From an uncultured Bacilli bacterium (GTDB lineage: Bacteria > Bacillota_I > Bacilli_A > RF39 > UBA660): DNA of 64,000 nt. The DNA is taken from assembly GCA_944358675.1 (NCBI GenBank), contig CALVRN010000003.1:3163-67162 (forward strand). The letters run 5' to 3'. The notes under the pieces were generated by a model. The model ran no database searches. It worked only from the letters and a program-made list of their open reading frames with translations, and had not been told where the DNA came from. The translations under genes were made by a program, and so were the position numbers. Shown one piece after another: positions 31,911 to 41,492 of this stretch. Within the stretch, counting starts at the first letter, position 1. Each line of letters begins with the position of its first letter.

Positions 31911-31927
31911 GTTATTTCTCAATCTTT
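31900..31927. terminator. bidirectional hairpin agattgag-ttattt-ctcaatct between convergent genes
   Basis: Perfect 8-bp inverted repeat overlapping the stop of 31326..31910, followed by TTTTG. Confidence 0.5.
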
Positions 31928-32515
31928 TGTTTGGCTTGCTTTAATTTTTACAATAATTTTTATTTGAGGTTCATTACTTTCCTCTTTAAATTCATATGAT
32001 TTTTTTCCATAATAGGTATCGGCTTCATCATCTCCTGATTCAAAAGGCCAGTTTAAAGTTGCGGTAAAGTTTCCTGTTTGCCCAACCGTAATTTCAGTAT
32101 CACTATTTATAAAAGATAATTTAAAAGGATAATTATTATTTAAAATATTAATGAGCTGTTCTTGAGTGTAATTTTCTTTGGTATATGTTTCATCAAATAT
32201 TTGGATAGACTCAATTTGATAACTAATATAAGCGGTCATTTCTCCATTGTTAGTAATATCTATTTGTTTTACTTGAGTATCAATTCCAGGATAAATATCA
32301 TCAAAATTAAATTCAACATTTTCTTCTAAGTCTTGTCCATCTTGGTCAAATGTTATTTTCCACGAGCGAACACCGGTGGTGATACTATTTGATACTTTGT
32401 TTGTATATATAAACCAAGCGAAACTATTAGCTATTAAAGCAATTACTAGAAAAAATAAGGTCCTTTTTCTAATCCTTTTTTTTATTTGTTTTAATTTATT
32501 TTGTTTCTTCATCAA
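31919..32515 (-). CDS. secreted protein with SipW-cognate signal peptide (module A cargo)
   Basis: 198 aa. ...LVIALIANSFAWFIYTNKV signal of the A-W-F-T type. C-terminal L-N-W-P-F-E-S-G-D-D-E motif shared with the other island proteins. Overlaps the upstream sipW by 20 nt. Confidence 0.65.
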   Translation of the reverse strand: MMKKQNKLKQIKKRIRKRTLFFLVIALIANSFAWFIYTNKVSNSITTGVRSWKITFDQDGQDLEENVEFNFDDIYPGIDTQVKQIDITNNGEMTAYISYQIESIQIFDETYTKENYTQEQLINILNNNYPFKLSFINSDTEITVGQTGNFTATLNWPFESGDDEADTYYGKKSYEFKEESNEPQIKIIVKIKASQTKD

Positions 32516-33062
32516 TTTCTTCTTCTTTGTTTTTAATATGATCTAATATTTCAAGGAATATTAGAAAAGCAAGTGGAACAAAGACTAGAAAGTAGAAACC
32601 ATAGGAATTATTTAAAATATGACTTAAAAAGCTTAAAAGTGCGGGTTTATATTTAACAACACCATAGATTTGTGAACTATCTATTTCTGGATCATCGGCA
32701 TTATTTGCTGTACCTCTAGTCGTAAAGGTATATTCTCCGTTGTTTTTTTCAATATTGACAACTCTATGGGTTACAATTTTATCAGTAAAGTCACCTTTTT
32801 TACCTAAATAAGCGACATCATCTCCCACTTTAATGTTTTCTGGATTTTCTTGTTTGACAATAACGACATCATATATATCATAATCCGGTTTCATACTGCC
32901 TGATACAATTGTAAACATACGGTAACTACCGATTGATACTTTGTTATCAAAAATTCTTTGAATTAATACAACTGCAACTATTAAAATAACAAATATCCAT
33001 ATAATTATTTTTAAAATTGTCAATAAGATTTTTATAAATTTATTATCTAATATTTTACTCAT
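32496..33062 (-). CDS. sipW: signal peptidase I, SipW/archaeal-ER type (catalytically intact)
   Basis: 188 aa. N- and C-terminal TM. SGSMKP (catalytic Ser), THRV (His), TRGTANNADDP. Same architecture as B. subtilis SipW of the tapA-sipW-tasA operon. Confidence 0.8.
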   Translation of the reverse strand: MSKILDNKFIKILLTILKIIIWIFVILIVAVVLIQRIFDNKVSIGSYRMFTIVSGSMKPDYDIYDVVIVKQENPENIKVGDDVAYLGKKGDFTDKIVTHRVVNIEKNNGEYTFTTRGTANNADDPEIDSSQIYGVVKYKPALLSFLSHILNNSYGFYFLVFVPLAFLIFLEILDHIKNKEEEIDEETK

Positions 33063-34164
33063 TATGATTCTCCACCTTTAAATTATCTATTTTTTCTGTA
33101 TATTTGTTAATGGCATCTTTATATATTTTTTCGATTTCGGTCAATGATGCTTTGTTTTTATATTTTACTTTGGTATATTTTTGACCAACTAAATTCAATA
33201 TTTCATCTAGTGATACTTCATCTAAATTTAAAAGACTATTTACCATATTCTCTACTACTTTTTCAGCTAGGTTTTCTTTTTCTTTATTAGTTATATTTTC
33301 TTTATTTAATGTTTGAACAATTAAATAATTAAGGGTAAATGATTCATCCATCATTTCTTTTAAAGTACTATTGTCGGTGTAATTTTTATTGTATTTATTT
33401 CTAGCTGAACTTGGTTCCATATGCGACTGAAGGTAATTCCACAAACTTAAGGCATATTGAAAATTAGTATTTTTTAAAATTAAGTTGGTTTTTTTTATGG
33501 GTGATACAACTGGTGCGACATGAAGTTTAACTAAATTTTTATATACTTCAGAACTAGTTAAGTCTTGGATTTGCTGTTCTAATTTAGCAATTCTTTCTAT
33601 AGGTGATGTTTTATTACTCTCTTTTTCTTGTAAATTAGTATGAATATTTAATGATATTTCAATTTTCTCTTTTCCTAAATGACTAGTGGCTTTATAATCT
33701 ATCATTTTTTCATCTTTTAAACTTCCAACTTCTAAGACTTCACGTTTTTTTCTTTCAATATACATTTTCATATTATTGATAAGACTGTAGATAAAACGAT
33801 TTTCATAAGTATTAAAAGATTCTTCTTTATTGATATTTAATATTTTAGAAGGTCTAACTTCTCCAGTTTTTTTATTATAATCTTGAATTAAATTAGTGTT
33901 TTTAGATAAATGTTTTATACTATCAACGGTGATTCTTCTAGCTAATTCTATTTTAACTATTTCTTCTTCATTGACAATAAATCTATTAGGATTTCTTAGT
34001 ATATTATCTAAGTATCTAATTGTTTCTTCCATTTTTGTTATCCACTCATCATCATATTTGCTTTCATCATGAGATTCTTTTACTTGAACAGTCGAGTTAA
34101 TAGCTTTTTGGAAATTTCCTTTTGTTTCTGGGTTAGCTTGTTCATATAAATTGATTATATTCAT
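33055..34164 (-). CDS. cytoplasmic hypothetical protein in the McrC position downstream of the McrB-like NTPase
   Basis: 369 aa. Weak N-R-F-I-Y-S-L motif resembling the McrC N-domain (LANRIIKSTL). No PD-(D/E)xK motif recognised. Overlaps sipW by 8 nt. Confidence 0.5.
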   Translation of the reverse strand: MNIINLYEQANPETKGNFQKAINSTVQVKESHDESKYDDEWITKMEETIRYLDNILRNPNRFIVNEEEIVKIELARRITVDSIKHLSKNTNLIQDYNKKTGEVRPSKILNINKEESFNTYENRFIYSLINNMKMYIERKKREVLEVGSLKDEKMIDYKATSHLGKEKIEISLNIHTNLQEKESNKTSPIERIAKLEQQIQDLTSSEVYKNLVKLHVAPVVSPIKKTNLILKNTNFQYALSLWNYLQSHMEPSSARNKYNKNYTDNSTLKEMMDESFTLNYLIVQTLNKENITNKEKENLAEKVVENMVNSLLNLDEVSLDEILNLVGQKYTKVKYKNKASLTEIEKIYKDAINKYTEKIDNLKVENHNE

Positions 34165-34177
34165 AATATCACTTCCA

Positions 34178-39835: not shown

Positions 39836-40400
39836 CCTTTTTTAATAAAATACCAGAGTAATATATTCCAAAATCGTCATCTTTAGATAATTTCTTTTTA
39901 CCTGTATATGAGAATGCAAGTGAGAAAAGAAATAGTGTAATACATATTAAAGCAATTATTTTAGGTGTAGTTATTACTTTATACCAAACACCAAAGTTAG
40001 GTAGTATTTTTATTACTTTACCAATAATTTGAGTTTCAGCTATACTACCATCTGCATCGTTATTGGCATCTCCTTTGGTTATATATGTATTACCATTTTT
40101 AGATATTAATCTATGAGTAACTAAACTTTCTCCATCATCATATGTAATAATATCATTTTCTGATACATCTTTGGTTACTTTAACTAATATTAAATCGTTA
40201 GTTGTAATTTCTGGAGCCATACTGTTACTGGCTATTTGAAAGACTGTATATGAAAATATACTGACATATTTATGATTTAGTATTTTGAGGTTAATAAAAG
40301 CGTATAAGACAATTAATAAAATAATGCCTAAAATTACTAGTAAAATATTACTAATAACTTTTAAAGTTTTATATAAAACTTCTTTTTTCACTTTCACCAC
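39819..40400 (-). CDS. sipW: signal peptidase I, SipW type (catalytically intact)
   Basis: 193 aa. SNSMAP catalytic Ser, VTHRLIS His, TKGDANNDADG. N- and C-terminal TM. Confidence 0.8.
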   Translation of the reverse strand: MVKVKKEVLYKTLKVISNILLVILGIILLIVLYAFINLKILNHKYVSIFSYTVFQIASNSMAPEITTNDLILVKVTKDVSENDIITYDDGESLVTHRLISKNGNTYITKGDANNDADGSIAETQIIGKVIKILPNFGVWYKVITTPKIIALICITLFLFSLAFSYTGKKKLSKDDDFGIYYSGILLKKDEKND

Positions 40401-40404
40401 CTCT

Positions 40405-40971
40405 TTACTCTATGTACTGATTAAAATTAATACTAATTGGTATTTCTATTTGACTATTTTCATCTAGGCCTAACTGAGAATCACTTTCGTTATATTCTTC
40501 TGAATCAGTCCAGCTGAATGTTACTTTAATCATATCTGTTTTACCATTTTGAATATCATTCAAAGTAATGATTTTACTATATGTATCATTTTCTTTGGTT
40601 AAAACTGTACCATTAATTCCTTCAATACTATCTATTTTTATTTGTGGATATGTATCTGTAAGATCAATGTTTAAGAAATACTCGATGGCGACATCTGTAT
40701 CTTTAGGGTCTATTTCTAAAATAAATTCACCTTTGGAGCCAGGAGCAAATTTACCATCACTGACTTTTCCATTATTGGTATAGGTGATGTTATCGACATA
40801 GAAAGTACTATCTACACCAAGATCATAATCATTGACATAAATGTGCCATTTAGCAATTTTTAAATCATTTTCACTTTGGATATTGCTTTCAAAAACAGCT
40901 AAAGAGGATGCGAGTTCAAAGATTGTTAAACCTAAAAACAAACATCCTATAATGATAAATAATTTTTTCAT
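40405..40971 (-). CDS. secreted protein with SipW-cognate signal (module D cargo); paralog of 31326..31910
   Basis: 188 aa. Signal ...LFLGLTIFELASSLAVFESNIQS. Shared blocks are listed under the 31326..31910 entry. Confidence 0.65.
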   Translation of the reverse strand: MKKLFIIIGCLFLGLTIFELASSLAVFESNIQSENDLKIAKWHIYVNDYDLGVDSTFYVDNITYTNNGKVSDGKFAPGSKGEFILEIDPKDTDVAIEYFLNIDLTDTYPQIKIDSIEGINGTVLTKENDTYSKIITLNDIQNGKTDMIKVTFSWTDSEEYNESDSQLGLDENSQIEIPISINFNQYIE

Positions 40972-41492
40972 TCTTCATCTAATGGGGTTTTTAGTTCTAT
41001 AATGAAACGATATATTTCATAAAGTAATAATAGTAATGTTGGTAAAACAATTATAAGCAAGAATCCAAAACGAGATTCTAAGAATCCTAATACTTTTCCA
41101 ACATTGTTATAAACTGTAGTTGTTTCAGTTTTACCGATTAAACTAGCACTTGATATATCGTGATTATCATTAATAGTAAATGTTCTTTCGGTATCAGTTA
41201 TAACTTCAACGTTGGTTACAGTACCAAGATTAATGCTTGGAATACCATTAGTTACTTCATAAAATAGTATTTCATCACCATTTTTTATTTCACTGATGTC
41301 GTTTTGTTTTACAACTAATAAATCCCCTTCTTTATATGGCTGTAATTCATCTTCGACAATGATTAAACTATTTCCAAGCATTACGGTTATATTATAATCA
41401 TTGTAATTTAATAAAAATGCGGTAAGAATTATAACGAGTGCGAGATAAACTGTACATATAATTCCAAATAAAACTTTTAAAACTTTTTTCAT
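40968..41492 (-). CDS. SipW-like signal-peptidase homolog lacking the catalytic Ser/His (pseudo-peptidase)
   Basis: 174 aa. GNSLII in place of SGSMxP. INLGTV in place of THRV. TINDNHD in place of TKGDNN. N- and C-terminal TM retained. Overlaps its cargo gene by 4 nt. Confidence 0.55.
   Translation of the reverse strand: MKKVLKVLFGIICTVYLALVIILTAFLLNYNDYNITVMLGNSLIIVEDELQPYKEGDLLVVKQNDISEIKNGDEILFYEVTNGIPSINLGTVTNVEVITDTERTFTINDNHDISSASLIGKTETTTVYNNVGKVLGFLESRFGFLLIIVLPTLLLLLYEIYRFIIELKTPLDEE

Follow-up and report, generated by a model that had tools for sequence, protein, structure and literature searches.

Predicted active and dead SipW-type signal peptidases in a conserved gene cluster with a membrane-anchored McrB-family GTPase

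Introduction

Why would a bacterium keep homologues of signal peptidases that lack the catalytic residues beside others that have them, and place a gene for a secreted protein directly after each? The question is raised by a 64,000-nucleotide stretch of DNA (hereafter the window) from an uncultured Bacilli bacterium (GenBank assembly GCA_944358675.1, contig CALVRN010000003.1, positions 3,163 to 67,162 of the forward strand; lineage RF39, UBA660). The original prediction, made from the sequence alone, described four tandem modules, each a peptidase-like gene overlapping a downstream gene for a secreted cargo, with catalytically intact and dead peptidases in alternation. The eight open reading frames (ORFs) are present as described, all on the minus strand, and the overlaps of 20, 8, 17 and 4 nt for modules A, B, C and D follow from their coordinates. 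These lengths assume the longest ORF; on near-identical contigs, the starts of cargoA and cargoC are called a few codons later, giving overlaps of ~17 and 8 or 4 nt. What the prediction missed is that all four modules form part of a larger conserved cluster, organised around a McrB-type GTPase with a membrane anchor. The genes of the four modules are as follows, with an asterisk denoting a catalytically dead copy (pepB*, pepD*) and TM standing for transmembrane:

pepD*, 40968..41492, minus strand: predicted dead S26B (SipW/Sec11-like) paralogue, 174 aa, with N- and C-terminal TM helices
cargoD, 40405..40971, minus strand: secreted β-sandwich subunit, 188 aa, with a 4-nt overlap (ATGA) with pepD*
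pepC, 39819..40400, minus strand: active-type S26B signal peptidase, 193 aa, with SNSM / THRL / GDANNDAD
cargoC, 39275..39835, minus strand: secreted subunit, 186 aa, partner of pepC
pepB*, 37605..38096, minus strand: second predicted dead S26B paralogue, 163 aa
cargoB, 36695..37612, minus strand: secreted subunit, 305 aa
pepA, 32496..33062, minus strand: active-type S26B signal peptidase, 188 aa, with SGSM / THRV / ADDP
cargoA, 31919..32515, minus strand: secreted subunit, 198 aa, partner of pepA

Catalytic residues and fold of the peptidase homologues

Against the TIGR02228 model (sigpep_I_arch), pepA and pepC score 82.7 and 76.9 bits, both above the curated cut-off of 51.85, and they contain the SGSMKP/THRV/NNADDP and SNSMAP/THRL/NNDADG motifs, respectively, which had been read in them originally and which are absent from pepB and pepD. 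We classify pepA and pepC as putative archaeal or endoplasmic reticulum (ER)-type signal peptidases (S26B, SipW/Sec11-like) with Ser, His and Asp retained; a PDB sequence search with pepC alone gave no useful match. Active and dead calls were made by scoring alignment columns in 218 ORFs of the peptidase family, taken from the window and from 110 related loci. Ser, His and Asp (S-H-D) occupied the catalytic columns in 80/80 pepA-type and 60/63 pepC-type ORFs (140/143 for the active types together), and in 0/67 pepD-type and 0/8 pepB-type ORFs (0/75 for the dead types). Many pepA orthologues read THQ or THE at the Thr-His-Arg site and are missed by a simple S.SM plus TH[RK] pattern.

The homology of the dead copies is nevertheless traceable at several levels. 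A full-length match of pepD to TIGR02228 is found at 27.6 bits (E 2e-6), below the cut-off, whereas pepB has no TIGR02228 match and matches the Bacillus SipW model alone (E 0.004). A profile of the pepB and pepD families aligned with the active copies of the cluster type at an hhalign probability of 98.8% (E 1.3e-16, 159 columns), with the Ser-x-Ser-Met, Thr-His-Arg and Gly-Asp-x-Asn segments replaced or deleted in the dead copies, and its alignment to human SEC11A was weak but in register. The AlphaFold 2 (AF2) model of pepD (pLDDT 88.5) places helices at residues 2-28 and 141-168 enclosing a β-domain, and its top Foldseek matches in the PDB were human SEC11C and SEC11A (7p2q_A, 7p2p_A; probability 1.00, TM-score 0.41-0.48), with Streptococcus pyogenes SipA (4n31_A) at rank 7 with a probability of 0.72. 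By hydropathy, each of the four proteins has a hydrophobic helix at either terminus, the pattern of pepB resembling that of pepD, in line with the topology proposed originally. As judged from the alignments, pepB and pepD are true S26B homologues that have lost Ser, His and Asp, as the claim that they are pseudo-peptidases had held, and the S26 fold is kept in the pepD model.

Had the catalytic residues merely moved, the dead family should contain a conserved Ser/His or Ser/Lys dyad elsewhere. The catalytic columns do not combine Ser with His in any of the 146 best family representatives, and the GDxN segment is deleted in 145 of them. Across 148 diverse members, His does not exceed 8% in any column and Lys does not exceed 48% in any extracytoplasmic column, and a shifted dyad is therefore ruled out, including the displaced Ser/His that would have contradicted the pseudo-peptidase assignment. 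The positions that are conserved lie elsewhere: 13 of the 19 columns conserved at ≥70% belong to the two TM helices or adjoin them (T24, L27, L28, N31, G132, S140, G143, L145, P151, Y158 and others), which points to an interaction within the membrane, and the rest are fold-core motifs (GDL, GD, Y78 and the G of IGK).

The two dead copies differ in age. A phmmer comparison matches pepB to pepD at E 1e-16, and pepB is a recent, lineage-specific duplicate of pepD, so that the ancestral state comprised one dead and two active copies. The alternation of active and dead peptidases is thus true of the window but lineage-specific, since many relatives lack pepB. We also considered four independent tandem duplications as the origin of the modules and rejected this, as pepB is a late copy of pepD and the cargos are old paralogues with orthologues of their own.

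Selection on the dead family and its breadth

Ratios of nonsynonymous to synonymous substitution (dN/dS; Nei-Gojobori) were calculated between the window and L035, its closest divergent relative, at 82% pepD identity. They were 0.076 for pepD, 0.142 for pepB, 0.140 for pepC, 0.143 for pepA and 0.031 for the GTPase; with dS of 1-1.8 close to saturation, the ratios are approximate, although their ranking is still clear. The dead copies are under purifying selection as strong as that on the active copies, and pseudogene decay of pepB and pepD was rejected on these values. Only one protein of the cluster is more conserved than pepD, which has 82% identity to its L035 orthologue where most of the others reach 62-75%.

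The dead family extends well beyond these loci. In a collection of 5.8 billion proteins, 99 pepD homologues were found, down to 34% identity and all unannotated, together with 16 homologues of pepB. An exhaustive HMMER search recovered 156 clusters (at 50% identity) at E <= 1e-30, 747 at E <= 1e-10 and 3,499 at E <= 1e-3. The original prediction had asked whether the dead copies are conserved in relatives and under purifying selection, and both copies are under such selection.

Some pepD-family members run to 80-130 residues beyond the ~175-aa core, namely P0037-P0040 (277-302 aa) and ORFs at L011 9959-10843 (294 aa) and L030 10040-10831 (263 aa). The pepD query is fully covered inside the longer P0037-P0040 proteins, which indicates genuine extra sequence; the additional length of the L011 and L030 ORFs may reflect an upstream start call.

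A conserved cluster with fixed peptidase-cargo pairings

All four peptidase-cargo modules lie within a conserved cluster of ~18 genes and ~20 kb (~31.3-52.0 kb of the window), flanked by the housekeeping genes lepA and valS. The remaining genes of the cluster are:

w237, 51291..52004, minus strand: secreted or membrane-anchored, conserved, at the cluster head
w328, 50321..51307, minus strand: secreted or membrane-anchored, paralogue of w341, at the cluster head
giant protein, 43160..50299, minus strand: secreted repeat protein of 2,379 aa with GG[GSN]N repeats, candidate adhesin or fibre component
w507, 41539..43062, minus strand: cytoplasmic, in a conserved position between the giant gene and pepD*
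w341, 38165..39190, minus strand: secreted, 341 aa, with a SipW-cognate signal; paralogue of w328 and candidate major subunit
w326, 35703..36683, minus strand: cytoplasmic, conserved, of unrecognised fold, always directly upstream of the GTPase gene
McrB-family AAA+ GTPase, 34178..35692, minus strand: 504 aa, with a TM helix (62-80), a coiled coil and a McrB-like domain
DUF2357 (McrC N-terminal-domain) protein, 33055..34164, minus strand: 369 aa
wOpp194, 31326..31910, plus strand: convergent paralogue of cargoD at the cluster end

The four pairs are thus real, although not contiguous as the term tandem had implied: w341 stands between modules C and B, and w326, the GTPase gene and the DUF2357 gene stand between B and A. 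Contigs encoding divergent pepD homologues, 26 loci from a genome scan and 80 loci from a GTPase-anchored metagenome scan show one conserved cluster, in which the wider gene order reads [w237 - w328 - giant - small ORF - w507] - pepD* - cargoD - pepC - cargoC - (w341 - pepB*) - cargoB - w326 - GTPase - DUF2357 - pepA - cargoA - (opposite strand) wOpp194. The positions of w326 and w507 are conserved in related loci, as is the linkage of the DUF2357 gene to pepA, and wOpp194 is oppositely oriented in most. Neither w326 nor w507 has a TM helix or a family match in library scans.

Each peptidase type has its own fixed neighbouring cargo type across the ~110 related loci, which bears out the module idea in a type-specific form. 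The gene immediately downstream is cargoD after pepD* in 50 loci, cargoC after pepC in 50 and cargoA after pepA in 66. For pepB*, cargoB is next in 8/8 loci; in other relatives cargoB follows pepD* (7 loci) or cargoC. Many relatives have the order pepD*-cargoD-pepC-cargoC-cargoB...pepA-cargoA, without pepB and with cargoB directly after cargoC, and where the cluster is split, the second half often opens with a dead copy directly before cargoB (e.g. L024, L032, L053 and L055). In the genome-contig survey, w341 and a pepB-type copy occurred within a full cluster only in the window, L009 and L011, with L035 having orthologues at the same positions; the metagenome scan added five pepB-type copies (L037, L043, L049, L070 and L072), each directly before cargoB. 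A dead copy is present in 33 of the 39 GTPase-anchored loci with ≥6 kb of upstream sequence, and the six without one include more distant, active-only architectures (L095, L101 and L107).

What is conserved in relatives is the adjacency of the two genes, overlap being found in only about half of the peptidase-cargo pairs. Nor is overlap peculiar to these pairs in the window, where the DUF2357 gene overlaps pepA by 8 nt (33055-33062) and w237 overlaps w328 by 17 nt (51291-51307); tight translational coupling is a general feature of the operon.

Individual relatives depart from this arrangement in several ways. A single 393-aa ORF in L017 (11152-12333) matches pepC in its first part (E 3e-33) and cargoC in its second (E 7e-29), which reflects either a natural fusion of peptidase and cargo or a frameshift in the assembly. 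An AAA_14/DUF4143 ATPase gene, absent from the window, is inserted between w341 and pepB* in L035 (13448-14749). Extra pepC-like gene pairs lie just downstream of the giant gene in L081 and L083, and probably also at L020 7651-8794 or L033 7888-8980. One member of such a pair has S-H-D at the catalytic columns and the other T-Q-N or A-R-E; the latter copies apparently represent an independent second catalytic loss, within the pepC lineage.

The GTPase and its McrC-related partner

The GTPase sequence alone gave no useful PDB match, and a profile of its family matched only chains of Escherichia coli McrB (E 2e-4 to 3.5e-4), in an alignment that pairs up the Walker A and Walker B motifs as well as the IGTINNDDS signature. 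It also matches the PADLOC candidate model PDC-M26A at E 5e-34. The DUF2357 protein matches PF09823, the McrC N-terminal domain, at E 4e-13 over residues 41-147; its family profile found no McrC or nuclease chain in the PDB, so that a nuclease domain is not detectable, and no other nuclease-like family was matched among the cluster proteins scanned. In the comparison with L035, the GTPase is the most conserved gene of the cluster (92% identity, dN/dS 0.031). The membrane-anchored GTPase and its nuclease-less partner are the best-conserved core of the cluster, and since the GTPase trio is both the best-conserved and a syntenic part of it, its chance insertion as a piece of a defence island was rejected.

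The architecture of the GTPase recalls CoCoPALM, named by Bell et al. (eLife 2024) in one paragraph with the analysis deferred (PMC11090510). As read from the sequence, a TM helix (62-80) is followed by a heptad-like charged segment, and the best Pfam match of residues 1-170 is FtsL, at an E value of 0.019 that falls below threshold; the protein therefore has the CoCoPALM architecture, with FtsB homology weakly indicated. The GTPase signature in CoCoPALM is NxD rather than NxxD, usually followed by D or E (PMC11090510). The signature here is an invariant I-N-N-D-D-S (N345, N346, D347, D348), which can be read as NxD followed by D, yet appears as NxxD in the gapless HMMER alignment to McrB.

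Secreted proteins of the cluster

Pfam and NCBIfam scans of the cargo proteins returned nothing meaningful save TIGR04088 for w341, and none of them matched the TasA/camelysin family of Pfam (Peptidase_M73) at E <= 0.1. Profile comparison connects cargoA, cargoB, cargoC, cargoD and wOpp194 at hhalign probabilities of 89-100% over 110-210 columns, compared with <1% for control cytoplasmic proteins of the cluster against the cargos. The strongest link is between wOpp194 and cargoD (100%, E 2.5e-43); cargoC connects to cargoD, cargoA and wOpp194 at 95-97%, cargoB to cargoC at 96% and to cargoA at 89%, and cargoA is likewise homologous to cargoD and wOpp194. The w341 and w328 proteins match each other at 100% and share their N-terminal part with the small cargos.

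In seven families (cargoA-D, wOpp194, w328 and w341) the N-terminal hydrophobic segment ends in a T-[YF]-[AGS]|x-[FY] type of motif, seen in the window as SLA|VFES in cargoD, TFS|SFQTD in cargoC, TYA|WFTAN in w341, TLG|RFVY in cargoB and SFA|WFIYT in cargoA. The w341 protein passes the TIGR04088 model (cognate_SipW) with 20.5 bits against a cut-off of 19. The AF2 model of cargoD is a β-sandwich (pLDDT 73.9) that resembles pilin domains and subunits of the TasA class, although the cargoD profile had no sequence match in the PDB. Residues 24-62 of this model, which lie right behind the signal peptide and include the conserved IAKWxIxVN, are of low confidence. Together, these features fit a fibre subunit, without being proof of one. 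Overall, the cargos are one divergent, β-sandwich, pilin-like family with a common SipW-class signal motif, and the cluster encodes at least 8 paralogous β-sandwich subunits together with the 2,379-aa repeat protein. An LPXTG-type motif occurs in none of the cluster proteins, and library scans gave no sortase family match among them.

The giant protein begins with a signal of similar type (AFTYG|AI) and has orthologues of 2,300-2,850 aa upstream of pepD* in relatives. Neither a match in Pfam or NCBIfam nor a cell-wall sorting signal was found in it. Much of its length is built of short [VIL][YF]GG[GSN]N...G repeats, a pattern that suggests a β-helical, passenger-like fold. Between its gene and w507, overlapping the start of the latter, lies a small ORF (43046-43150, minus strand) for a helical 34-aa product, MKEIETKELIEAYNQIISYLKELEQLKK..., with counterparts of 31-42 aa at the same place in L001, L005, L006 and L035.

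A C-terminal motif with a conserved Cys is common to w341 (YMWIEGQDVDCENN), w328 (YMWIEGQDVDCEDN) and w237 (IYLEGDDPECVD), and hhalign aligns w237 with the other two in the tails only; the motif could be a metal or disulfide site.

Two observations concern the cluster boundaries. A hairpin with a perfect 16-bp stem (31896-31933) falls exactly between the convergent stops of wOpp194 (31910) and cargoA (31919), where it probably terminates transcription in both directions and marks the cluster end. This stem-loop was the sole credible signal of the regulatory scan, in which promoter-like sites occurred at chance level (135 found versus 140 expected). The cluster is also bracketed by two related pilin-like genes, at 52501-53058 (minus strand, 185 aa) and 30721-31176 (minus strand, 151 aa). 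The longer protein carries a prepilin N-methylation motif (PF07963, E 3e-9; TIGR02532) and the shorter matches the longer at E 1e-13. Secretion of SipW-operon proteins in Clostridium perfringens needs type IV pilins (PMC11580942), and the position of the two genes may therefore not be accidental.

A possible role for the dead peptidases, and its alternatives

With confidence only a little above even, we favour the view that the operon builds a sortase-independent surface fibre. Signal peptides would be removed from the subunits by the active-type pepA and pepC, while the dead copies would bind without cleaving and the GTPase would provide energy or control from the cytoplasmic side. Within the membrane, a dead copy might bind signal peptides or subunits without cutting them, in a manner comparable to SipA of S. 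pyogenes in sortase pili, and so keep its cognate subunit, cargoD or cargoB, in place to prime, anchor or order assembly. The dead copies might alternatively act as a non-catalytic partner of an active peptidase. In a model from C. perfringens, BsaA oligomers stay anchored in the membrane by their uncleaved signal until SipW cleaves it (PMC11580942), which offers a possible way for a protein that binds without cleaving to retain a primer or base subunit.

The chaperone or platform role of the dead copies is one that we infer by analogy with the streptococcal SipA, and several points weigh against this view. The signal motifs of the cargos beside dead copies look as cleavable as those beside active ones, so the sequence gives no sign that cargoD or cargoB remains uncleaved, nor does it separate the platform from the partner model. 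The 6 of 39 GTPase-anchored loci that have no dead copy in reach imply that this copy is locally dispensable or encoded elsewhere in the genome. Furthermore, the cluster descends from restriction-type machinery of the McrBC kind, and with the GTPase matching a PADLOC candidate, a defence-related role is possible.

The main alternative assigns the dead copies to a heteromeric signal peptidase complex, as subunits without catalytic activity. In it, pepD* would pair with pepC or pepA and shape substrate choice or the local membrane instead of holding cargo, a role like that of the accessory subunits that accompany Sec11 in the eukaryotic complex. The arrangement of the genes is suggestive here, with only one gene between pepD* and pepC in nearly all loci, and a C-terminal TM motif, S-x-x-G-F...P...E-I, is common to the dead family and pepA. 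The concentration of dead-family conservation in TM and juxtamembrane segments would also be consistent with such a complex, as would best structural matches to SEC11 chains that were solved within the human one. The eukaryotic accessory subunits are not paralogues of Sec11, however, which makes the analogy loose, and in the split clusters L024, L032, L053 and L055 the dead copy immediately precedes cargoB, with several genes between it and pepA downstream and no pepC nearby; the interaction of pepD* with an active copy is itself putative. We regard a heteromeric complex as possible, if on the doubtful side. That pepB and pepD are instead decaying, functionless remnants of duplicated SipW genes might be argued from the loss of all catalytic residues and from scores under the curated family cut-offs, but reading frames are intact in >100 loci, the dN/dS values of 0.076 and 0.142 are equal to or below those of the active copies, pepD ranks second in conservation within the cluster (82% identity), and the family forms hundreds of 50%-identity clusters with conserved motifs, so that decay is scarcely credible.

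A different alternative concerns the cluster as a whole, which might be a defence or conflict system of the McrBC lineage, its secreted and peptidase-like proteins serving envelope remodelling or exclusion and its dead peptidases acting as sensors or decoys. Although the GTPase belongs to the McrB family and matches PDC-M26A (E 5e-34), and CoCoPALM has been placed among the CoCoNuT-like relatives of Type IV restriction systems (PMC11090510), the McrC homologue has no detectable nuclease and no further nuclease-like family was found among the scanned proteins. Most of the coding capacity is devoted to secreted structural protein, and, unlike mobile defence islands, the cluster sits between lepA and valS and keeps a stable gene order across relatives with 34-60% pepD identity. 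We therefore consider a defence function improbable.

Returning to fibre assembly, a more specific proposal can be formulated, which we put forward as speculation and judge unlikely. In this proposal the dead S26B paralogue would be the dedicated chaperone or platform of an uncharacterised, sortase-independent Gram-positive pilus pathway; a particular minor subunit would be bound through its uncleaved signal anchor, in a membrane complex to which the active SipW-type enzymes and the GTPase, by its TM segment, would also belong, and GTP hydrolysis by the McrBC-derived motor would gate or order fibre assembly. If true, a pseudo-protease and restriction-type machinery would both have been put to a new use. 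More generally, the cluster would link a McrB-type GTPase to extracellular fibre assembly, a link that is directly testable, and it is carried by uncultured Bacillota of the gut, of whose surface structures very little has been described.

Comparison with known systems

Among systems with SipW-type enzymes, the tapA-sipW-tasA operon of Bacillus subtilis and the sipW-bsaA-bsaB-bsaC operon of C. perfringens resemble the present cluster in encoding a dedicated peptidase of this type beside its subunits, in their SipW-class signals (recognised here by TIGR04088 in w341) and in their β-sandwich subunits. They have one active peptidase, no dead paralogue, no nucleoside triphosphatase and two or three subunits, and the cargo proteins described here, unlike TasA and camelysin, have no Peptidase_M73 match in Pfam. 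The original prediction knew of no paired active and inactive SipW arrangement, and our literature searches likewise found no description of one. Sec11 of the human signal peptidase complex (7p2p, 7p2q) provides the best structural match for pepD*, and its S26B branch, characterised by Ser, His and Asp, also includes pepA and pepC. In that complex, Sec11 is catalytic and the accessory subunits are unrelated proteins, whereas the accessory-like protein here is the dead paralogue itself.

To our knowledge, dead signal peptidase homologues acting as pilus assembly factors are known only from the S26A branch and from sortase-dependent pili (SipA/LepA). SipA of S. pyogenes is a signal peptidase homologue in which Asp and Gly replace Ser and Lys and the peptide-binding cleft is kept, and it is essential for pilus polymerisation and assembly (PMC4049620). 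Like SipA/LepA of the FCT pilus islands (4n31), the dead copies have the signal peptidase fold without the catalytic residues, SipA being among the fold matches of pepD*. SipA is encoded inside a pilus gene cluster, is of bacterial P-type origin (S26A, Ser/Lys) and has sortases and LPXTG pilins as partners. Unlike SipA, pepB* and pepD* derive from SipW-like enzymes of the ER/archaeal-type S26B branch (Ser/His/Asp), have a second, C-terminal TM helix and stand beside active paralogues, among cluster proteins without an LPXTG motif or a sortase family match. The dead copies are therefore SipA/LepA-like in concept and not members of the SipA/LepA family; they form a large, conserved dead family from the other branch (at least 156 clusters), encoded beside active paralogues and a fixed partner subunit.

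The closest precedent is CoCoPALM. It is not mentioned in the text-form supplementary files of Bell et al., and our literature search found no follow-up paper. Its signal-peptidase-family genes were suggested to be likely pilus assembly factors (PMC11090510). The present locus fits CoCoPALM in architecture. Both have a McrB-family GTPase with an N-terminal TM helix and an FtsB/FtsL-type coiled coil, a McrC homologue with DUF2357 and a coiled-coil-like tail, signal-peptidase-family genes alongside (with pepA here overlapping the DUF2357 gene by 8 nt) and Bacillota hosts. The searched literature held no description of the division into active and dead peptidases, of their constant pairing with cargos, of the subunit family or of how widespread the dead family is. 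Beyond the main text on CoCoPALM, the locus displays a split of S26B peptidases into active and dead copies, fixed cargo partners, a single cargo family with one signal motif, and a giant repeat protein. Where CoCoPALM has so far only been named, there is now a parts list with a gene order, a subunit family, a signal motif and a division of its peptidases into active and dead.

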